From contig OZ024740.1 in NCBI GenBank assembly GCA_964016885.1, forward strand, positions 358,236,001 through 358,300,000: a stretch of DNA of 64,000 bases, in the 5' to 3' direction. Numbering within the stretch: the stretch's first letter is position 1; each line of letters begins with the position of its first letter. Under the pieces are notes generated by a model. It was not told the DNA's origin. It ran no database searches and saw nothing but the letters and a program-made list of their open reading frames with translations. Source of the DNA: Eledone cirrhosa (taxonomy: Eukaryota). The position numbers were made by a program, and so were the translations under genes. Shown piece by piece: positions 2,889-63,210 of the stretch.

Positions 2889-2925
<37 letters not shown>

Positions 2926-2929
<4 letters not shown>

Positions 2930-3114
2930 AAAAAGTATGACCCCGACGGCAGAGATCAAGCCGTTTCGACAGCTATTTCTGGACTAAATAGCCGTCGAAA
3001 CGGCTTGAGCTCTGCCGTCGGGGTCATACTTTTTCCTATACCCACTCTACTACCCTAAGTATTGATTACTCTGGTGCGTTATGGTCCATCTGGTTCCTTA
3101 CCACAATTCCTTCG

Positions 3115-3117
<3 letters not shown>
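2926..3117 (+). mobile_element. ~190-bp hairpin-headed element, copy 1 of 3
   Basis: ~55-bp-arm palindrome (2926-3040) plus ~75-bp tail ending ccttcgtta; (TA)n on both sides; homologous to 4043-4240 and 52251-52450. Confidence 0.85.
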
Positions 3118-3161
<44 letters not shown>

Positions 3162-4042: not shown

Positions 4043-4046
<4 letters not shown>

Positions 4047-4234
4047 CGAAGGAAATGTTGTAAGGAACCAGGTGGACCATAACGCACCAAAGTACTCAAT
4101 ACTTAGGGTAGTAGAGTGGGTAATAGGAACGAGTAGGACCCCGACGGCTGAGCTCAAGCCGTTTCGACGGCTAATTCTGGACCAGAATTAGCCGTCGAAA
4201 CAGCTTGAGTTCAGTCGTCGGGGTCCTACTCGTT

Positions 4235-4240
<6 letters not shown>
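4043..4240 (-). mobile_element. ~190-bp hairpin-headed element, copy 2 of 3
   Basis: Reverse complement of the 2926-3117 family; (TA)n on both sides. Confidence 0.85.
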
Positions 4241-4768: not shown

Positions 4769-4946
4769 TATATATATATATATAATGAAAAGAAATAATG
4801 CAACTGGACTCTTTTAAGAATATTTATATTTATTTAATTTACCGGTCTCACAGTTCTTTTGATTTTCAAAAGTAAAATTGAGATGGAGGATTTTTGTTTC
4901 TGCTGTGGTGTGTCTAAAACCTTACTTTCTCATATATATATGTATA

Positions 4947-5325
4947 TATATTAATAAAAGGAATTCCAACTTTGTCTGATTTACTCGTTTTATTTACAAT
5001 CCTTTAAAATTATAATGATATTATAATGAAATAGTATGGTAGAATATTAAATGTCAAGTGTTAATTGAACAAGTACTTTCGCAATCTTCAGGTTCATATT
5101 CTGTGGTGACAGTCAAGTTTGTAATTTTCACAGTTGAAAATTGCAAACTTGACTGTCACCACAGAATATGAACCTGAAGATTGCGAAAGCATGAAAGTAC
5201 TTGTTCAATTAACGCTTAACATTTAATATTCTACCAAACTATTTCATTATTATATCATTATAATTTTAAAGGATTGTAAATAAAACAAGTAAATCAGACA
5301 AAGTTGGATTCCTTTTATTAATATA
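4947..5325. mobile_element. ~185-bp-arm fold-back element carrying a hammerhead ribozyme
   Basis: Near-perfect palindrome centred on ttttca-cagt-tgaaaa (5131-5134); TA-rich flanks; intact HHR in the right arm, internally deleted copy in the left arm. Confidence 0.9.
5169..5207 (+). ncRNA. Minimal type I hammerhead ribozyme
   Basis: tgaac CUGAAGA ttgc gaaa gcat GAAA gtac UU gttca: stem I tgaac/gttca, GNRA-capped stem II, palindromic stem III AGUACU. Confidence 0.9.
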
Positions 5326-5337
5326 TCATACACACCC

Positions 5338-16430: not shown

Positions 16431-16483
<53 letters not shown>

Positions 16484-16706
16484 TTCGTTTCTGAATTTGT
16501 TTAGCAAGATTCTTTATCTGAAATCGTGTGTTGAAACCGATATTGTTATACTTTGGGAGGGTCATGTTGCCAATAAGAAACACACGCACCAGTTGCTTTC
16601 ACTTCAATTTAATTTATTATATATTTATAAATTTACAAATTTATAAATTTATAAATTTCTGGTTGGTTGGTTGGTTCCACAACCAGATAGTTGTTTATAT
16701 ATATAT

Positions 16707-16751
16707 AGTCATAGTTCTTTCGTCACACACTCTGTGACCTCTTCAGTGACT
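16707..16751 (-). ncRNA. Minimal type I hammerhead ribozyme (inverted pLTR copy)
   Basis: Reverse complement of 20422-20466. Confidence 0.85.
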
Positions 16752-17064
16752 GGGGATTTCTTTCTTCGTTTCTGTGCCTTTCCTTTCTTCTATCCTACGC
16801 CATTTTGTTTGTGTGTGGGTTGCGTGCTCAGTTTGCGCATGCGCCACATCCGGGTGTCTGTGTGTGTTTGTGTTCATTTTTCTATTTTTCTATTTTTCTA
16901 TTTATATTTGTTTGTTTATTTATTTATTTATTGTTGGTTGGTTGTTTGTTCTATGTGTGTGTGTGTTTTCATTTTTTCATTTTGTCTTGTGTGTGTTTTC
17001 ATTTTGTGTGTGTTTTCAATTGTAAGTTGTTTGTTCTATGTGTGTGTGTGTTTTCATTTTGTCC

Positions 17065-19475
17065 TTAATTGTAAGTTGTGATGTTGCTGTTCCACTCATA
17101 TTTTCTATTTAATTTTGGTTTTAATTCTTTTATGCTTACTGCCTCTGTAATTTGCCTAAACATTGCGTCTTTCTTGTGTGTGGATTCTATTTTTATTTCT
17201 ATGCTCTCTAATTTACCCCTGTGTTCTATCTTAGCATGTTGGTAGAGCACAGATGATTCTTTACTATCTTGGAGGTCTCGCCAGTGTTCATTTATTCGTT
17301 CCCCTATACTACGAGCTGTCTCACCTATGTACACTATATTTTTGTTTCTACATTGTCCTTCAGTACATCTTATGCTATATACTACATTTCTAGTTTTACA
17401 GTTAATATGGGGGCTTATTTTACAGGTTATACATTTCTTATCTATACATGAGGGTCTTTGGAACGGGTATGTCTTGCTAATAAGTGTTTTTACGGAGGTA
17501 CCAGGTCTTTCTACTATCTTAATATTGAGATTATGTTTCTTTAGGGCCCTTCTAAATTTGTAGGCTAGTTCGCCTCTAGGGGTTGTATTGATGAACATTA
17601 CACTCTGGTATTTATTGCTATCATACCATGAGTTTATTCTATTGGCCTTGTTCTTAGTTCTTTCTATTCTATTCCAAAATTTGCTCCTATACAAGGGGCA
17701 GGTCCCATTTATGTCATTATTTACCATTTTTTCCCATTTGGTTCTGGCTCCTTTATACACTCTGATTCTATCTCTCTGATTGTAGCCAGAGAACTGCATA
17801 CGGTGGATGAAGTGTTGTATGTGTCTCTCTAGTTCTTCGGGGTTGCACATGCGGGACACATTTCTCATCACCCGTACCAAATCCGCAATCAGTATGTTGA
17901 TTTTGGTATGGTCCGAAATGGCCGAGTTTCGGTGGATCAGATGTTTGGAAGTCATGGGTTTGGCATAATGGGAATGGAGGATTTGTTTTTGGTTGTTAAT
18001 AGTATCTAACCAGAGCTCTGTGTCTAGTACAGGTAATCGATGGTTGGGGTGTCTACTTGGGTAGTCTATAGTAACTCTAATGCTCTGGTGGATGGAGTTT
18101 GCTATTTGCTGGATGCTTTCCATTGTGTTTTTCTCTGGTTCCTGACTGTTCTTTAGTGGGGGTGTCTTAACTACGATGTTTATATCATCTACGTAGCGGG
18201 AGTACATTATCAGGGTTAAGCTGTCTTCTAATTGTTCATTAAGTTTTTGTTTAAGTCTACTGTCCCACCATACCATGAATAAGTTAGCTATGTCGCCTGC
18301 AATGCTAACACCAATGGCTGCTCCTTCCTCTTGGGCATATGTTTTACCATTAAATTTGAACATATGTTCCTTAAGGGTTAATTTTATGCTGGCCCCTACC
18401 GCATGTGCAATCATTTTCTTCAGTTCATCGTGGTTTTCGGGTGTCCGTATGGCTCTGGTCCACCCATTCCATCTATCTGTGTGGGTTTTCTTGGGCATTG
18501 AGGTAATGGTAGGTGGTCTGCCTCTTGCTGGTCTTGTAGGGCACAGGTTGCTAAGGTCGTAAGTGTCTAGGTAACTATTGCTATGGGTAAGCTTAAGTAG
18601 AAGTCCCAGCTCACTGGTATCAATCCCACGGAACTCAACCTTGCTCTCGCTGATCATTTCGACGCATTTCTCCACAGCAAAATCCACGTCAATAGATGGA
18701 TACAGGGACACAACATCCATACTGCCTATTATGCAGTTTGTTAGGTCCCCAGATCGGTTGCCCGCGCCGATTCTGCTGAGGAGGTCCTCGGTGCTGTCAC
18801 ACACATCTGGGGACATCTCAATGATGGGGCGTATGATCAGGGAGAGGAAGTAGGACAGTCTGTAGTTACTAGCAATGTTAGCCCCACAGACTGGCCGTGT
18901 TGGTGGTCCCGCGACAGGGTCCCAGCCCGTTTTATGGTCTTTTCGAAGCCCATACAACGCCGGCACGTCATTGTTCCAGGCCTGGAAGTTGTTGGCAGTC
19001 CTTTTGTTGGGCTGCATTATATTTGTCCACATCACCATATGGGCATTGAGGGTTTTTTCTCTATCCTCATGCTCCTGTGGTGTTACCTCTCTTGTGTTAG
19101 TGATGTGGGGTTGCATTGCCTGGATGTAGTTTGGCAGGCTGTCAACCGACATTCTGCCAGACTTGTCTGTTGGAAAGCATGCTATCTCTCCATTACGCGA
19201 GCGCTGCATGAGCTTACGCAAGCCATTTGCAGATTCTTCTCCCAGTTGCTGGGCCTCTATTCTATTATGCTTCTTGCTATACTGTTCTATAATATTTCTA
19301 AGTTCGGATTTAGCTATACTAAATTGTGCTTCTGTTTGTTCATCGACCTGCGACGGCAACTGCGTGCGTTTGTTAAATGGCAAAGTCGTGGCGTGGACTC
19401 GTCGTAGGTCGAATGATTTATCGGAGGGGTTATAAAACGGAGAGTTCCAGGCTGCTGCTTTATGTGTACTAGTGC
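17065..19475 (-). pseudogene. 5'-truncated inverted copy of the PLE ORF; RT and GIY-YIG remain open
   Basis: 772-aa ORF identical to the C-terminal part of 20608-24483 except LPVLD vs LHVLD. Confidence 0.9.
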
Positions 19476-20108
19476 CCCTTGTACAGGAGCAAATTTTGGA
19501 ATAGAATAGAAAGAACTAAGAACAAGGCCAATAGAATAAACTCATGGTATGATAGCAATAAATACCAGAGTGTAATGTTCATCAATACAACCCCTAGAGG
19601 CGAACTAGCCTACAAATTTAGAAGGGCCCTAAAGAAACATAATCTCAATATTAAGATAGTAGAAAGACCTGGTACCTCCGTAAAAACACTTATTAGCAAG
19701 ACATACCCGTTCCAAAGACCCTCATGTATAGATAAGAAATGTATAACCTGTAAAATAAGCCCCCATATTAACTGTAAAACTAGAAATGTAGTATATAGCA
19801 TAAGATGTACTGAAGGACAATGTAGAAACAAAAATATAGTGTACATAGGTGAGACAGCTCGTAGTATAGGGGAACGAATAAATGAACACTGGCGAGACCT
19901 CCAAGATAGTAAAGAATCATCTGTGCTCTACCAACATGCTAAGATAGAACACAGGGGTAAATTAGAGAGCATAGAAATAAAAATAGAATCCACACACAAG
20001 AAAGACGCAATGTTTAGGCAAATTACAGAGGCAGTAAGCATAAAAGAATTAAAACCAAAATTAAATAGAAAATATGAGTGGAACAGCAACATCACAACTT
20101 ACAATTAA
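19473..20108 (+). pseudogene. GIY-YIG-coding segment in the upstream partial direct repeat
   Basis: Translation matches the last ~209 aa of the full ORF; begins at the inversion junction, so it has no true start. Confidence 0.9.
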
Positions 20109-20421
20109 GGACAAAATGAAAACACACACACACATAGAACAAACAACTTACAATTGAAAACACACACAAAATGAAAACACACACAAGACAAAATGAAAAA
20201 ATGAAAACACACACACACATAGAACAAACAACCAACCAACAATAAATAAATAAATAAACAAACAAATATAAATAGAAAAATAGAAAAATAGAAAAATGAA
20301 CACAAACACACACAGACACCCGGATGTGGCGCATACGCAAACTGAGCACGCAACCCACACACAAACAAAATGGCGTAGGATAGAAGAAAGGAAAGGCACA
20401 GAAACGAAGAAAGAAATCCCC

Positions 20422-20466
20422 AGTCACTGAAGAGGTCACAGAGTGTGTGACGAAAGAACTATGACT
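20422..20466 (+). ncRNA. Minimal type I hammerhead ribozyme in the 5' pLTR
   Basis: agtca CUGAAGA ggtcaca gagtg tgtgac GAAA gaac UA tgact; predicted cleavage after A20461. Confidence 0.88.
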
Positions 20467-20607
20467 ATATATATATAAACAACTATCTGGTTGTGGAACC
20501 AACCAACCAACCAGAAATTTATAAATTTATAAATTTGTAAATTTATAAATATATAATAAATTAAATTGAAGTGAAAGCAACTGGTGCGTGTGTTTCTTAT
20601 TGGCAAC

Positions 20608-23600
20608 ATGACCCTCCCAAAGTATAACAATATCGGTTTCAACACACGATTTCAGATAAAGAATCTTGCTAAACAAATTCAGAAACGAAATATCGTAAGC
20701 CTTAGCCAGGCTAACAAGATACTGAAAACCACCATGTTCTGTTGTCTACGAAAAACCATAACATCTCGACAACTACACTTCATAAAACTGTGCACCACTT
20801 CTAGAATCTACACCAACACCATCAATACCGACGTTAGAAGATTACAACTCACCAAAAAACAAGCAGATAGGCTAAAACGAACTTTAATTCTAAACATAAA
20901 AAAGAAGATCTATAGAGAATTAAGTCATCAAGAAAAACTAAAGCGTAACCTAATAGATGAAATATCTAAAATCACCACACCAGCAGAAAAACTAACATTT
21001 ATAAGCCTTATACGCCCCGAAGAACAGTACATTACTCAAGAATGTAATAAGCACTTTAACAGAAAATTAAAGTGGCTTAAACAGGCAAAGCTAAATCGGG
21101 ATACTATAGAGTATACCAATAGATATCCCGACAAAATTGACGGTATCAACATGGCCGACACCTCATTATCTGAAGAGTTCAACAATGAAAATACCAACAT
21201 TTATGGAAACACGGAAATAGATAATAATGAAATGTCTGTGTTACGTCTGCCACCCAAATTTGCGACATTCAAGAAGGTAAATATGATTAGTTGTCTGTCA
21301 GAAATAGAAAAATCATTTACGAAACTACGCTGGAGCATCAAAAACAAAAACAAAAGCAACAATATACGCACACACATATACAACACACATCCCAACAACA
21401 ACAGACACACAGACACAAACAACAATAACAACAACAATAGCAACATACCCAGATACAACAACAACAATAGCAACATACCCAGATACAACAACAACAATAG
21501 CAACATACCCAGATACAACAACAACAATAGCAACATACCCAGATACAACAGACACGCAGACACAAACAACAATAACAACACACACGGAGACAACAATAAC
21601 AACAACACACACATCAACAACAACAACAATAGCAACATACCCAGATACAACAACAACAGACACGCAAACACAAACAACAATAACACACACAACAACGATA
21701 ACACACACACACACGGAGACAACAACAACACACATCAACAACAACACACATCAACAACAACACACACGCATTCAATGCCTCTCACCACCACCACAATCTT
21801 AACAAACACACAGACACAGAAAACAAGTAATGACAGTAGCACAGAAATCAGAGAAATAAGAGAAAGTAATAGGATTAAAAGGAAAAGGAGATGGGAGACT
21901 AAGGACAAAGAGAATAACCAAGACGAACACACAGACACACAAAATAGGGTAGATAACAACATTGAGCCAGTGGAAAGAGACAGGAGTAATTATGAGAGAC
22001 ATAGAAATAACCATGAAGCTGAGGCTGCTGCTGTTGGTGGAAATAGAAACAACACAACTAACAATAACAATAGCACTAGTACACATAAAGCAGCAGCCTG
22101 GAACTCTCCGTTTTATAACCCCTCCGATAAATCATTCGACCTACGACGAGTCCACGCCACGACTTTGCCATTTAACAAACGCACGCAGTTGCCGTCGCAG
22201 GTCGATGAACAAACAGAAGCACAATTTAGTATAGCTAAATCCGAACTTAGAAATATTATAGAACAGTATAGCAAGAAGCATAATAGAATAGAGGCCCAGC
22301 AACTGGGAGAAGAATCTGCAAATGGCTTGCGTAAGCTCATGCAGCGCTCGCGTAATGGAGAGATAGCATGCTTTCCAACAGACAAGTCTGGCAGAATGTC
22401 GGTTGACAGCCTGCCAAACTACATCCAGGCAATGCAACCCCACATCACTAACACAAGAGAGGTAACACCACAGGAGCATGAGGATAGAGAAAAAACCCTC
22501 AATGCCCATATGGTGATGTGGACAAATATAATGCAGCCCAACAAAAGGACTGCCAACAACTTCCAGGCCTGGAACAATGACGTACCGGCGTTGTATGGGC
22601 TTCGAAAAGACCATAAAACGGGCTGGGACCCTGTCGCGGGACCACCAACACGGCCAGTCTGTGGGGCTAACATTGCTAGTAACTACAGACTGTCCTACTT
22701 CCTCTCCCTGATCATACGCCCCATCATTGAGATGTCTCCAGATGTGTGTGACAGCACCGAGGACCTCCTCAGCAGAATCGGCGCGGGTAACCGATCTGGG
22801 GACCTAACAAACTGCATAATAGGCAGTATGGATGTTGTGTCCCTGTATCCATCTATTGACGTGGATTTTGCTGTGGAGAAATGCGTCGAAATGATCAGCG
22901 AGAGCAAGGTTGAGTTCCGTGGGATTGATACCAGTGAGCTGGGACTTCTACTTAAGCTTACCCATAGCAATAGTTACCTAGACACTTACGACCTTAGCAA
23001 CCTGTGCCCTACAAGACCAGCAAGAGGCAGACCACCTACCATTACCTCAATGCCCAAGAAAACCCACACAGATAGATGGAATGGGTGGACCAGAGCCATA
23101 CGGACACCCGAAAACCACGATGAACTGAAGAAAATGATTGCACATGCGGTAGGGGCCAGCATAAAATTAACCCTTAAGGAACATATGTTCAAATTTAATG
23201 GTAAAACATATGCCCAAGAGGAAGGAGCAGCCATTGGTGTTAGCATTGCAGGCGACATAGCTAACTTATTCATGGTATGGTGGGACAGTAGACTTAAACA
23301 AAAACTTAATGAACAATTAGAAGACAGCTTAACCCTGATAATGTACTCCCGCTACGTAGATGATATAAACATCGTAGTTAAGACACCCCCACTAAAGAAC
23401 AGTCAGGAACCAGAGAAAAACACAATGGAAAGCATCCAGCAAATAGCAAACTCCATCCACCAGAGCATTAGAGTTACTATAGACTACCCAAGTAGACACC
23501 CCAACCATCGATTACATGTACTAGACACAGAGCTCTGGTTAGATACTATTAACAACCAAAAACAAATCCTCCATTCCCATTATGCCAAACCCATGACTTC

Positions 23601-24483
23601 CAAACATCTGATCCACCGAAACTCGGCCATTTCGGACCATACCAAAATCAACATACTGATTGCGGATTTGGTACGGGTGATGAGAAATGTGTCCCGCATG
23701 TGCAACCCCGAAGAACTAGAGAGACACATACAACACTTCATCCACCGTATGCAGTTCTCTGGCTACAATCAGAGAGATAGAATCAGAGTGTATAAAGGAG
23801 CCAGAACCAAATGGGAAAAAATGGTAAATAATGACATAAATGGGACCTGCCCCTTGTATAGGAGCAAATTTTGGAATAGAATAGAAAGAACTAAGAACAA
23901 GGCCAATAGAATAAACTCATGGTATGATAGCAATAAATACCAGAGTGTAATGTTCATCAATACAACCCCTAGAGGCGAACTAGCCTACAAATTTAGAAGG
24001 GCCCTAAAGAAACATAATCTCAATATTAAGATAGTAGAAAGACCTGGTACCTCCGTAAAAACACTTATTAGCAAGACATACCCGTTCCAAAGACCCTCAT
24101 GTATAGATAAGAAATGTATAACCTGTAAAATAAGCCCCCATATTAACTGTAAAACTAGAAATGTAGTATATAGCATAAGATGTACTGAAGGACAATGTAG
24201 AAACAAAAATATAGTGTACATAGGTGAGACAGCTCGTAGTATAGGGGAACGAATAAATGAACACTGGCGAGACCTCCAAGATAGTAAAGAATCATCTGTG
24301 CTCTACCAACATGCTAAGATAGAACACAGGGGTAAATTAGAGAGCATAGAAATAAAAATAGAATCCACACACAAGAAAGACGCAATGTTTAGGCAAATTA
24401 CAGAGGCAGTAAGCATAAAAGAATTAAAACCAAAATTAAATAGAAAATATGAGTGGAACAGCAACATCACAACTTACAATTAA
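20608..24483 (+). CDS. Penelope-like polyprotein: N-terminal domain, Asn-rich insert, reverse transcriptase, Cys-rich linker, GIY-YIG endonuclease (1291 aa from first ATG)
   Basis: Motifs TDKSG, LYGLRKDHK, TRPVC, SMDVVSLYPSID, QEEGAAIG, SRYVDD, SGY; linker CIDKKCITCKISPHINC; NVVYSIRC...YIGETARSIGERINEH; EAVSI...LN. Confidence 0.97.
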   Translation: MTLPKYNNIGFNTRFQIKNLAKQIQKRNIVSLSQANKILKTTMFCCLRKTITSRQLHFIKLCTTSRIYTNTINTDVRRLQLTKKQADRLKRTLILNIKKKIYRELSHQEKLKRNLIDEISKITTPAEKLTFISLIRPEEQYITQECNKHFNRKLKWLKQAKLNRDTIEYTNRYPDKIDGINMADTSLSEEFNNENTNIYGNTEIDNNEMSVLRLPPKFATFKKVNMISCLSEIEKSFTKLRWSIKNKNKSNNIRTHIYNTHPNNNRHTDTNNNNNNNSNIPRYNNNNSNIPRYNNNNSNIPRYNNNNSNIPRYNRHADTNNNNNTHGDNNNNNTHINNNNNSNIPRYNNNRHANTNNNNTHNNDNTHTHGDNNNTHQQQHTSTTTHTHSMPLTTTTILTNTQTQKTSNDSSTEIREIRESNRIKRKRRWETKDKENNQDEHTDTQNRVDNNIEPVERDRSNYERHRNNHEAEAAAVGGNRNNTTNNNNSTSTHKAAAWNSPFYNPSDKSFDLRRVHATTLPFNKRTQLPSQVDEQTEAQFSIAKSELRNIIEQYSKKHNRIEAQQLGEESANGLRKLMQRSRNGEIACFPTDKSGRMSVDSLPNYIQAMQPHITNTREVTPQEHEDREKTLNAHMVMWTNIMQPNKRTANNFQAWNNDVPALYGLRKDHKTGWDPVAGPPTRPVCGANIASNYRLSYFLSLIIRPIIEMSPDVCDSTEDLLSRIGAGNRSGDLTNCIIGSMDVVSLYPSIDVDFAVEKCVEMISESKVEFRGIDTSELGLLLKLTHSNSYLDTYDLSNLCPTRPARGRPPTITSMPKKTHTDRWNGWTRAIRTPENHDELKKMIAHAVGASIKLTLKEHMFKFNGKTYAQEEGAAIGVSIAGDIANLFMVWWDSRLKQKLNEQLEDSLTLIMYSRYVDDINIVVKTPPLKNSQEPEKNTMESIQQIANSIHQSIRVTIDYPSRHPNHRLHVLDTELWLDTINNQKQILHSHYAKPMTSKHLIHRNSAISDHTKINILIADLVRVMRNVSRMCNPEELERHIQHFIHRMQFSGYNQRDRIRVYKGARTKWEKMVNNDINGTCPLYRSKFWNRIERTKNKANRINSWYDSNKYQSVMFINTTPRGELAYKFRRALKKHNLNIKIVERPGTSVKTLISKTYPFQRPSCIDKKCITCKISPHINCKTRNVVYSIRCTEGQCRNKNIVYIGETARSIGERINEHWRDLQDSKESSVLYQHAKIEHRGKLESIEIKIESTHKKDAMFRQITEAVSIKELKPKLNRKYEWNSNITTYN
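21340..21800 (+). repeat. In-frame AAC/AC-rich low-complexity region with 30-bp tandem repeat (NNNNSNIPRY)
   Basis: aacaacaatagcaacatacccagatacaac x4 at ~21431-21550, plus a fifth copy near 21622-21651. Confidence 0.95.
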
Positions 24484-24796
24484 GGACAAAATGAAAACAC
24501 ACACACACATAGAACAAACAACTTACAATTGAAAACACACACAAAATGAAAACACACACAAGACAAAATGAAAAAATGAAAACACACACACACATAGAAC
24601 AAACAACCAACCAACAATAAATAAATAAATAAACAAACAAATATAAATAGAAAAATAGAAAAATAGAAAAATGAACACAAACACACACAGACACCCGGAT
24701 GTGGCGCATGCGCAAACTGAGCACGCAACCCACACACAAACAAAATGGCGTAGGATAGAAGAAAGGTAAGGCACAGAAACGAAGAAAGAAATCCCC

Positions 24797-24841
24797 AGTC
24801 ACTGAAGAGGTCACAGAGTGTGTGACGAAAGAACTATGACT
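24797..24841 (+). ncRNA. Minimal type I hammerhead ribozyme in the 3' pLTR
   Basis: Identical to 20422-20466, 4375 bp downstream. Confidence 0.88.
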
Positions 24842-25000
24842 ATATATATATAAACAACTATCTGGTTGTGGAACCAACCAACCAACCAGAAATTTATAAA
24901 TTCATAAATTTGTAAATTTATAAATATATAATAAATTAAATTAAAGTGAAAGCAACTGGTGCGTGTGTTTCTTATTGGCAACATGACCCTCCCAAAGTAT

Positions 25001-25036
<36 letters not shown>

Positions 25037-27539: not shown

Positions 27540-29200
27540 TTCGTGGTCCACATAAATAGAACACTGAGATAGGGGCACAGAGTAAACAGCTATTTTGTAT
27601 TGAGCAATCGATTCGTCAGAGATGTTCTTTTATATCTCTTCTGTATGTGCTGGCTCTCGAGCGAGCCACATTTGCGGAAGCTAAGACTGTTGATGGGACT
27701 AGGCTTTCGAACTACATGTGAGAACAGTGTTGGCATGTGAAAATGACGTCACCGTTATGGCGTCAGACACCACGGAGTCGGGGGTGGTCAGTAACGCTGT
27801 AAAGGAATATAATGTGGTGAAGGAAGTAAATATTAACCACAGACAAGTTTGTGGGAATGCGGCTCAGCACCTGGAGAGGCAAGTACATGATGTCGGACAA
27901 TGTCGTGAGGCACTGGATCGATAAACCAGTTAAACTGATTAGACTCTGGTTTGGTACAGACCTCCTAGTAGACAGAAACTGGGATAAGGTTACGAACAGG
28001 GTGGTTTTACTTACATAGAAATAGACCGGGAGGAATCTGTCCTTCAAAGATCGAGCAGAGGTGGAAAATATTTACATCACCTCTGCCGTCATTTACCATT
28101 TGATCGTGCTCTCTTGTGGAAAAGCTGAATTTTACTTATCAAATGGTCTACCTGTTGCCAATACTCCCTGTACAGGCGACTCAGCATGTCATTGCTATTG
28201 ATGTACAGGCATGCGATGGGGCTACATCATTTGCAGTGATTCCTGGACAGGGAATGTGTGTAGCAGCTTTATTTTCAGAAAAGACCAAGGCAGGGCGCCT
28301 GACATCAGAAATAATTGTCAAGGTGCTTACAGCTTTCTATCAGTCGGGCAAGACAATTAATGGAAGTTCCACATTAGCTATATATATATATAGAGAGAGA
28401 GAGAGAGAATTAGTATATTTACCAACATATGCGTACAGATGTACACTAATGCTAGCAAATACATAAGTTATGTCATAGTTTGTCATTATACCACCCCACT
28501 CCTTCTGACTAGCCCCAGTGTCACGTGATTGATTCTTTAGAATCTGCCATTTGACCAGAGACAGTGAACTTTTTCAGTGCTATGGAATTTAGTCCCCGCT
28601 AGCTGTTCCATCCACCGAATTATTATTTTTATATGAGTCCCTAGTGTCCGCGCATTGCCTGGAGACTTAGCTGAGAATAGACTCCCTGATGACGTAATGA
28701 ATTCTCGATGGTTACATTGCGTAACTATCTTTATCCCATTACAGAAACTAATTAGTTGGAGTGAACATTTTAGTAAGTAAGTTAATTTTTAATTTTTAAA
28801 ATTTTCTTATTTTACCTCTTTCATATATATATATATAGGTAGTTTCCCGAAATCTGTAGTTTCCTGCAATGCTGCCGGTTCAAAATAAACTCTATAGGCA
28901 TGCAAGTGATGTCAGATCAGCCCGTTCGAGATGCGTGCAGAGTGATGGAACTGCTCTGCGTGCACTCGTTCAATGCTCCTGTATTGTGGATTTATGTTGA
29001 AAAATTGTTGTTGCATGTAGGACGGATACGACTAAATCCATCATGAAGATCACCCCGCTGCCTACCTTTAACAGTTTTCCTATGTTTGGTGGCTATGGTG
29101 AAAGAGGTTGTGTAATGGACAAAACTGAAAGAACTGTAGACAGACACATTCTTCTCCAGTCAAGTTCTCACCGTCTGTTTTGAAGTTTCACTTGTAAAGG
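27540..29200 (+). mobile_element. Decayed Tx1/L1-like LINE ORF2, interrupted at ~28380-28838
   Basis: Peptides SIRQRCSFISLLYVLALE and PVKLIRLWFGTDLLVDRNW; after the interruption LPVQNKLYRHA...RCVQSD, homologous to 33570-33680. Confidence 0.7.
28681..28762 (+). ncRNA. Type I hammerhead ribozyme with enlarged loop 2
   Basis: actcc CUGAUGA c gtaatg...cattac a GAAA ctaattag UU ggagt; palindromic stem III ACUAAUUAGU; (TA)n ~60 bp downstream. Confidence 0.88.
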
Positions 29201-42693: not shown

Positions 42694-43174
42694 TATATAT
42701 ATAATAGTAATGAATATAGTCGAAGATGCAGCTGCAAGTAGCAGATTCGCATCAGATTGGTTTTCGAAGTCTGTCACAAAGCACTCAAAGATAAAGTAAT
42801 TTATAAATTGCTCCTCAGAGAGAACACAAGAAGTTAGGTAATAGTAACACAATAAATAATGCGGCCAGAGGCATGTTGTCACAGTAATACTACAACAACG
42901 AAAAATACAGACATGTAAGAGACGAATCTGGACCTGATCTATAGATATTAATCGATAAATATCTTCCTTGGGTTTCTGGGAATCCGAAAGTTACAAGTCA
43001 GTAATATATCCTAAGATGGAATAGGGATATATATATATATATATACAGATAAATCTACCACCCAATGGTAGGGTCTAAACCGTATAAAGAACTGAATGTA
43101 ATCCGTATGTAGAAGATTTTGTGAAGCAAAGTTTAAAATACAAAAATTTTATCAACGATATAAGTCAAAATAGT

Positions 43175-47034
<3,860 letters not shown>

Positions 47035-49830: not shown

Positions 49831-49903
<73 letters not shown>

Positions 49904-49909
<6 letters not shown>

Positions 49910-50073
49910 ATGAATGGCGCACAAAGGGTTAATGTTTATTGGCAAGAAGTTTTTTGAATAATAAAAGACGGGTTAAAGCGACCTACAATGTATTTGTGTA
50001 TATATATATAAATATATATTCAAAAAACTTCTTGCCAATAAACATTAACCCTTTGTGCGCCATTCATCTAACT
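49904..50073. repeat. 57-bp perfect inverted repeat abutting (TA)n
   Basis: agttagatgaatggcgcacaaagggttaatgtttattggcaagaagttttttgaata and its reverse complement at 50017-50073. Confidence 0.92.
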
Positions 50074-50715
50074 GTAGGCGAACAAATACCAAGTAAACGG
50101 AGCGTTGACAAAAACGATGGTGAATGAATCTTCGATGTAAGCAATTTCCTCCCGAGCTGTTAGTTCACGCGCGATTCTCTGCTACACCTTTTCGTAATAA
50201 TTGTTTCTACTTTAGGCACAAGGCCAGCAATTACCCAGTGCATTACTGGTACTTTATTTTATACTGAACAACGTACTGCTGGTCACTCCTTCCTCCAAAA
50301 GCCGTACAAAGCGGACATGTGCATCGGGTAGATGGATCGAGTGCAACTCTACACCAGGCCTACGCGAGAAATTCGCAGGGGACTGCACCGAGAGGGATAG
50401 AGAGAAAGAGTAACTTAGTGGAAAGAGGGCGAATGAACTCTTGAGGTAAGTAGCCTACGCCTTACTGCTATTACACTGGAACCTTCTGCCAACTTAACCT
50501 GTGACTTTCTCTTTCACATTTACTCCAAAAGGCAAAAACAGAGGTGTATGAAAAGAATATTTCTTTGAACAATGCACGTAGACAGCTAAACTGTACTTTC
50601 AACTTCTTAGTTTTCTCCAAATAAAACAAGTTTCCTGTCGGTATATTTTCGTGAGTTTTTAACAGGCACTCACAAATAAACGTTTTTCATTGGAAGTGCT
50701 ATTACCAATGTTCTT

Positions 50716-52218: not shown

Positions 52219-52600
<382 letters not shown>

Positions 52601-52628: not shown

Positions 52629-52932
52629 AAAATAAAGTTAAATAAAAAGTCAAATGTTTAAAATTTAGCTTCGTTTATTACTGCTATATATATTTCAGTG
52701 ACATTTTTGGAATCATATGATTGCAGTTCCTCAGAGAAATAACAACCTAACCAGGAACTGGACATATAAGAGTATTGACAAAATTATACACCTCAACAAC
52801 ATATGTACTTGTCTATACCACACTAATTCGGACTGCCTGAAGAGGTCACAGCCAAAGATGGCTGTCACTGAAATATATATAGCAGTAATAAACGAAGCTA
52901 AATTTAAAACATTTAACTTTTTATTTAACTTT

Positions 52933-53149: not shown

Positions 53150-53690
53150 GTAAACCTAGAAACTTTAGCACCTCTTTAGTTAATTCCACCACTCCTGATC
53201 CTAATATAATTACTCCTGGACCACTTGCCAATAACTCTGTAAATAATCTTAATCGTAAATGCAACTGCCCTATTAGAACTAATTGTCCTCTTAGTAATTT
53301 CTGTCTCGATAAAAACCTAGTATACGAATGTAAAGTGGTAACTAGTACCAATTCCTATACCTACATTGGCTCTACTTCTACCTCCTTTAAAGCAAGATTC
53401 TATAATCATTCTTCTACATTTAAATCTCCACTTAAAAGGACCAGCACCGCACTATCAGAACTTATTTAGTCCTTAAAAGACAAAAACATAAATTACGAAA
53501 TTTCTTGGCGTAAAATCTACAACGCATCTCCATACTCCAATGCTTCCATATTTAGTGTTTGTAATTTATGTCTAGTTGAAAAATTTACCATCATCTCGAA
53601 TTTCAACACAATAATAAATCGAAGAACCGATTTATTTGGACTTTGTAATCATAAATCCTACAAGACCTTTCACAAAGTATATAGCTGATG
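53150..53690 (+). pseudogene. PLE GIY-YIG C-terminal fragment, same type as 43175-46997
   Basis: CNCPIRTNCPLSNFCLDKNLVYECKV...YIGSTSTSFKARFYNH...CNLCLVEK...INRRTDLFGLCNHK with one internal stop; not in the ORF track. Confidence 0.88.
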
Positions 53691-63102: not shown

Positions 63103-63210
63103 AAGAAGATTTTAGCAGATGCAAGCATATCTATGCTTATGTTTGTACATATATACATATATAAGTACAAACATAGGCATAGATATGCTTGCATCTGCTA
63201 AAATCTTCTT
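63103..63210. repeat. ~45-bp-arm hairpin with TA-rich loop
   Basis: aagaagattttagcagatgcaagcatatctatgcttatgtttgtac / gtacaaacataggcatagatatgcttgcatctgctaaaatcttctt. Confidence 0.92.

Follow-up and report, generated by a model that had tools for sequence, protein, structure and literature searches.

Mirrored inserts in (TA)n repeats of Eledone cirrhosa

Three inserts of ~190 bp in a 64,000-nt stretch of Eledone cirrhosa DNA (hereafter the window) each consist of two arms that mirror one another, which raises the question of how both arms of a single insert come to carry the same sequence variants. The inserts lie at 2925-3118 (+), 4043-4239 (-) and 52253-52450 (+), are flanked on both sides by (TA)n, and share 87-91% identity in pairwise comparisons. 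Folding produced one long hairpin per copy, with minimum free energies (MFE) of -97 to -108 kcal/mol. The initial annotation had placed mirrored-arm elements at 2930, 4128 and 52260 and described a common ending that runs into (TA)n; the words it quoted do start at these positions, within copies sitting in (TA)n, and the tail CCTTCGTTA was observed as the terminus of all three copies. No fourth copy was found by blastn of the 64-kb window, and Rfam returned no match for it. The features are listed below in parent numbering, where +1 is the A of a TTAGTC motif in loop II.

2891..2927, no strand: (TA)n target, left of copy 1
2925..2985, - strand: copy 1 tail-less arm, inverted, parent +1 to +61; the TAT at its outer end is common with the target
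2981..2989, no strand: head-to-head join of the copy 1 arms, readable as blunt (+1/+8) or as -3/+8 through a 4-nt microhomology
2986..3039, + strand: paired portion of the copy 1 tailed arm, +8 to +61
2989..3024, + strand: copy 1 type I hammerhead 3' half, without the 5' half (based on aligning it with long parents and on counts of paired bases)
2989-2996 and 2997-2999, + strand: copy 1 stem II 3' strand, and GAA
3000-3004/3014-3018, + strand: copy 1 stem III; cleavage predicted 3' of C3019; 3' strand of stem I at 3020-3024
3040..3118, + strand: copy 1 tail, present on one arm only, +62 to about +143; its final TAT is common with the target
3116..3159, no strand: (TA)n target, right of copy 1
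4043..4239, - strand: copy 2, second subfamily (long parents L155 and L233), junction near 4176-4186
52253..52450, + strand: copy 3, third subfamily (long parent L173), junction +2/+5

Several other features of the window were noted. An unrelated fold-back palindrome beside copy 1 (2693-2865) has a GAAAC motif in one arm and is possibly a stub of another Penelope-like element (PLE) family; further unrelated palindromes occur at 4941-5332, which has a hammerhead-like CUGAAGA...GAAA core in one arm, and at 43172-43427, 49901-50076 and 63103-63210. A large inverted and tandem unit at 16480-25008, with arms of up to 2,936 nt reported as 100% complementary, a 1,302-aa open frame with Asn-rich repeats (20575-24480) and hammerhead-like cores at 20427 and 24802 (+) and 16746 (-), resembles a young PLE from a different clade. 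Relatives of the Hydra-type ORF described below, broken and 38-57% identical piecewise, lie at 43658-46104 and 53233-53670. A hammerhead-like core whose stem II has 7 bp and which is unrelated to the stub family occurs at 52837-52880, and a 306-aa ankyrin-repeat-like open frame, perhaps an exon of a host gene or a retrocopy, at 40393-39476 (-).

Abundance and parent element

An exact hairpin-core pattern matched 13,756 sites in the genome and its reversed control matched none; the mirrored hairpins are therefore not chance. The tail runs directly into (TA)n at 28,802 sites. In 600 kb sampled from the three largest contigs as 60 evenly spaced pieces of 10 kb, 16 tail ends were counted, which extrapolates to roughly 80,000 copies in the 3.0-Gb genome if this sample is representative. 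Contigs from other sequencing runs, the best of which may be the assembly's own sample, contain (TA)n ends and fold-back joints of the same kind, which are thus no quirk of one assembly. At L140, L228, L185 and L329, stubs are found inside the (TA)n flank of older stubs, creating mixed-subfamily clusters.

Upstream sequence was obtained from a longer palindrome (L028) and matched many identical copies, among them inverted pairs and tandems 3,531 bp apart, with partial tandems at L061 and L064. The parent is a 3.53-kb PLE, represented by a 3,531-bp tandem unit encoding a 717-aa ORF with reverse transcriptase (RT) and GIY-YIG endonuclease (EN) parts; together with the long copies, this unit provides the non-palindromic parent for which the initial annotation had suggested a search. 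A long non-palindromic copy exists for the subfamily of each window copy.

The motifs FDIESYY, MGATDS, YRDD and VIY...YIG of the 717-aa ORF are kept across 19 homologs, and 2,049 homologs of the ORF were counted among 7,996 scored. Pfam and PDB searches with the ORF gave no match, and Pfam GIY-YIG matched one of five homologs scanned. Alignment of the homologs identified RW[K/R], DKT, a CxCX5C linker and CxxC plus CxH around a conserved E and N, with CCHH absent; the parent itself has SDKTGN and RWR at the RWK position, where homologs have either RWK or RWR. As described by Craig et al. (2021, PMC8557442), the Hydra clade is characterized by RWK, DKT in place of DKG, the CxCX5C linker, CxxC/CxH, lack of CCHH and a (TA)n target. 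On these motifs the parent is assigned to the EN+ PLEs as a member of the Hydra clade, and its family is a new member of this known clade; a Neptune-type reading of the linker was dropped because the motifs fit the Hydra description in PMC8557442. Both partial tandems and inverted 5'-truncated copies with a tail at one end, features of EN+ PLEs, are present, and the window elements are almost certainly PLE insertions.

The parent also agrees with the Hydra clade as described in PMC8557442 in the order of RT and GIY-YIG, in the (TA)n target and in a hammerhead near the 3' end. Its unit is 3.5 kb, whereas most Hydra elements are given there as smaller than 3 kb, and, as a further difference, most copies of the E. 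cirrhosa family are ~190-bp stubs.

Hammerhead motifs of long copies and stubs

The hammerhead of long copies is a complete type I motif, made up of stem I, a YUGANAA core, an extra G, a stem II closing a ~35-nt loop, GAA, GUC and a 5-bp stem III under a palindromic or near-palindromic loop III. Among 15 long copies, pairing was found in 89.7% of cells, A8 in all 15, U3 in 10 and C3 in 4. Two-sided changes affect three pairs, all in stem II and all from three copies of one older subfamily, and may represent few events. The MFE structure of the full motif is the three-way fold, but its energy is unremarkable (z = -0.42), and Rfam did not match a hammerhead in the parent.

All three window copies retain the 3' half only. 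The resemblance of the right arm to a hammerhead 3' half, as initially annotated, is borne out by alignment to the long parents; the accompanying reading of the loop is not, as loop III starts with the UU that follows CGGC, and the triplet predicted for cleavage is GUC (3017-3019). The upstream core expected at that time, CUGANGA, also differs from the actual YUGANAA core (U3-A8), so a search for it would fail. A C3 opposite A8, predicted to break the 3-8 pair, was noted at L155:1333-1436, L233:5352-5455 and L131:1889-1993; the four long copies with C3-A8 belong to the subfamily of window copy 2, an abundant one, or close to it. This combination would probably impair cleavage. Because stub arms pass through the predicted cleavage site, the hammerhead is read as uncut in stub templates. 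This agrees with in vitro work in which uncleaved RNA served as template and hammerhead cleavage was not needed (Frangieh et al. 2024, PMC11167929).

The hammerheads of the Schistosoma PLE Cercyon (Cervera and De la Peña 2014, PMC4209133) are similar in having U3-A8, a covariation known from Schistosoma PLEs, an extra nucleotide after A9 and a palindromic loop III, and include opposite-strand motif pairs 100-700 bp apart; the parent differs from them by a longer stem III and loop II and, in one subfamily, by C3 opposite A8. Its combination of a U3-A8 core, ~35-nt loop II and 5-bp stem III is absent from the Hydra hammerheads given in File S2 of PMC8557442, and the hammerhead of Hydra-1_Obim, a cephalopod Hydra-clade member listed in the same paper, has a different sequence. 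A non-LTR retrozyme, described as head-to-tail units each with a complete hammerhead (bioRxiv 10.64898/2026.07.22.740005), was considered and rejected, the stubs being dispersed, head-to-head and equipped with half motifs.

Outer ends and the one-sided tail

Of 108 copies with two arms, 78 have a tail-less arm that terminates at +61, whereas tailed arms terminate at about +141/143. Long two-arm copies follow the same rule, with ends at +61 and +141 in 13 of 15. Both outer ends sit on a TAT that matches the target. One-tail hairpins outnumber both-tail hairpins by 15,251 to 158 (counted with similar, not identical, patterns), such that about 99% have exactly one tail. A small bulged hairpin is predicted past the tail end (z -2.1), and a similar one just 3' of the +61 end, where it scores z -1.8 in the tail of copy 2 and the other three segments prefer another fold; the tail of copy 1 is predicted to form a small bulged hairpin resembling the one directly past the tail end in the parent.

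For the Poseidon element from Anolis (PAc), RT has been reported to start in vitro at two sites bounding the tail, with both target strands extended (PMC11167929). By analogy with these two tail-bounding starts, we infer that the outer ends at +61 and +141/143 are RT start sites and that both target strands prime.

Inner boundary and junctions

The inner ends are variable within a strict limit. Among 118 hairpins, 79 distinct centres were found, joined through microhomologies of 1-6 nt, blunt joins or short insertions that are often locally templated; microhomology of 1-6 nt was present at the junction in 10 of 14 long copies. None of 236 arms extends beyond -6 in a search permitting a 60-nt centre, defining a hard inner boundary from -6 to +2. 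It coincides with a TYAGTY motif (-2 to +4) that is kept in 15 long copies while the surrounding loop II diverges, and older-subfamily hairpins, judged by eye, stop there too. The motif resembles the insect initiator consensus. Internal promoters with an initiator have been described for Penelope repeats (PMC2377424, PMC3846280), and by this analogy +1 is the predicted transcription start and RNA 5' end. A splice acceptor at the boundary was considered and dropped, as a recurrent upstream exon was not found.

The boundary may instead be a site in loop II where RT stalls or where the RNA is processed, with priming still two-sided. Such a site would sit well with the solo copies, in which the base before +1 was G in 6, C in 9 and T in 85 of the first 100 of 425, thus without a cap-like G excess, and with starts scattered from -3 to +2 and extra A/T runs at some junctions; a single extra junction base was a cap-like C in 7 of 14 hairpin junctions. 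We regard stalling or processing as improbable, given that the boundary follows TYAGTY across diverged subfamilies, that initiator-containing internal promoters are on record for Penelope repeats, that no fixed upstream exon follows the boundary and that long copies read through it.

Concordance of arms within copies

Arm comparisons were made on 56 one-tail copies (window copies 1 and 2, and a further 54 made up of window copy 3 and members of the random, tail-selected and core-pattern sets). Within a single copy the arms show 1.77 differences over 43 columns, compared with 5.32 (left-left), 5.34 (right-right) and 5.32 (left versus another copy's right) for arms of different copies. In a tree of arms, the left/right label required 31 changes compared to 26.2 in shuffles, with 499 of 500 shuffles as low, although few columns and rough support underlie this tree. 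Left and right arms form no separate groups and arms cluster by copy, the outcome expected initially. The mirroring of variants was equally well observed, but their description as copy-specific was too strong, since most are subfamily markers common to many copies. A variant confined to left arms in the first 30 loci was an effect of using copy 1 as query, and the 56 copies show no left/right bias.

In 50 copies of four subfamilies, 66 changes affect one arm only and 5 are private and mirrored; arms have therefore undergone little homogenisation after insertion. When 14 long copies were compared to the reference over 12.5 kb, 27 differences were mirrored and 7 were in one arm, and none of these 7 recurs in another copy. 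Overall, the two arms of a copy usually seem to have a common source. Both-tail hairpins, which need two primings per site, are also mostly concordant: arms were identical in 21 of 38 both-tail and 72 of 98 one-tail copies (P = 0.063, within a range of 0.047-0.063 for the sample), and discordance genome-wide was 3 of at most 235 both-tail versus 35 of 6,807 one-tail hairpins. Concordance therefore fits one RNA as well as two RNAs of one source.

Two cDNAs or a folded-back copy

One explanation of concordance, put forward in the initial annotation, is that one arm is re-templated from the other: a cDNA snaps back at hammerhead stem II, or at microhomology, and copies itself into the second arm. 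Near-universal agreement between arms (158 sites discordant at one marker versus 13,756) and the junction microhomology of long copies would be natural products of such folding. A fold at stem II, whose 5' strand lies near -40 to -30, should leave the ~35-nt loop II at the centre of the hairpin, and yet all 236 arms stop at or before -6. Moreover, a folded-back arm cannot exceed its template, whereas 5 of 15 long copies have a tail-less arm longer than the tailed one; in three of them, whose identity to the young reference is 98.5-99.8%, the excess is 1,296, 955 and 275 nt. Shorter copies behave similarly: in 23 of 72 with one tail and two arms, the tail-less arm outreaches the tailed one by 10 nt or more, and in 12 of the 23 the arms do not overlap (random and tail-selected sets, five of 28 rows dropped as internally deleted, misparsed or symmetric; a very short second arm is scored as solo, which biases this count). 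As tailed and tail-less arms each hold sequence that is absent from the other, neither was copied from the other.

Additionally, 39 one-tail hairpins join two subfamilies at at least two linked sites (~0.6% relative to 6,807 under a similar pattern), contrary to copying of one arm from its partner; they indicate either two templates at times or conversion. Some asymmetric or chimeric copies could also have arisen by later apex deletion or ectopic conversion. Taken together, we consider snap-back quite unlikely, and the proposal of a fold at stem II is not upheld.

Self-priming of an antisense transcript, a route put forward for rotifer Penelope (PMC3846280) in which the palindrome already exists when the element integrates, is given the same low probability. 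It would account for the head-to-head geometry and for arm identity, leaving the tail side free, but predicts neither two fixed, TAT-matched outer ends nor a sense-strand boundary at an initiator-like motif, nor the 12 copies with non-overlapping arms and the two-subfamily hairpins. A MITE- or Helitron-like non-autonomous unit, with selection or post-insertion gene conversion preserving the likeness of its arms, would fit the very high copy number, stereotyped size and lack of a visible target duplication, but is very improbable in view of the many distinct centres, the absence of separate left and right lineages, the long non-palindromic parent of each main subfamily and the excess of one-arm over private mirrored changes.

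A model of two-sided priming

We consider it probable that both nicked target strands prime RT, at +61 and at +141/143, and that the resulting cDNAs are end-joined, mostly after run-off at the predicted +1. The endonuclease would nick both (TA)n strands, and the 3' end of each nicked strand would pair with a UAU of the RNA, one located at +61 and the other at +143. Both cDNAs would then extend toward the RNA 5' end; on a promoter-proximal RNA, they would reach +1 and run off with lengths of 60 and 140 nt, and their 3' ends would be fused head to head by end-joining. A read-through RNA primed at the downstream repeat would give rise to long inverted copies by the same steps. In this two-primed reading, the arms mirror each other because their template is common to both, and the evidence suggests that a single RNA, or a single source locus, usually supplies both. 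Arm overlaps reach 2.6 kb, which requires either strand displacement or two RNAs.

A more specific version, which we put forward as a tentative possibility, is that the main PLE product is a strong-stop-like stub, made by a dimeric RT-endonuclease on one RNA with two hairpin-marked starts near its 5' end, the second RT displacing the first cDNA before the run-off cDNAs are end-joined.

Relation to known systems

L1 twin priming yields an inverted and a forward part joined by microhomology, and the 12 non-overlapping copies have this form. The present inserts differ in that the second primer acts at a fixed site and in that the arms usually cover the sequence twice, resulting in a hairpin.

The canonical PLE insertion is an inverted 5'-truncated copy with an optional tail of 30-40 bp (PMC8557442, PMC3846280). 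The stubs share its head-to-head arms and the tail on one arm, and are distinguished by a tail of ~80 nt and by junctions piled at one site. PAc resembles them in its two tail-bounding internal starts, in the cutting and extension of both strands, in its AT-rich target, its predicted dimer and its independence from hammerhead cleavage (PMC11167929). It belongs to another clade and its starts lack homology to the cut DNA, whereas stub ends match (TA)n by TAT; the inverted arm is not traced to the two starts in the parts of that study considered here. On the mechanism, the PLE papers either come to no decision or suggest self-priming of an antisense transcript (PMC8557442, PMC3846280). Inverted copies with a one-sided tail are known PLE architecture, and a literature search that covered largely open-access papers returned none in which the inverted arms of PLEs are explained by priming from two sides.

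Implications

The origin of the inverted ends and one-sided tail of PLEs is named as an open question in PMC8557442. The E. cirrhosa family offers tens of thousands of natural events, partly very young, that discriminate between models; it argues against snap-back and ties the two RT start sites defined in vitro to the two arms. The model predicts RT starts at +61 and +141/143 and an RNA 5' end at -3/+1. For genome annotation, stubs resemble MITEs but are retrotransposition products. If the stub is indeed the main product, a single reaction would explain the inverted pLTR and one-sided tail of PLEs generally, and stubs would chart the transcription start in DNA.
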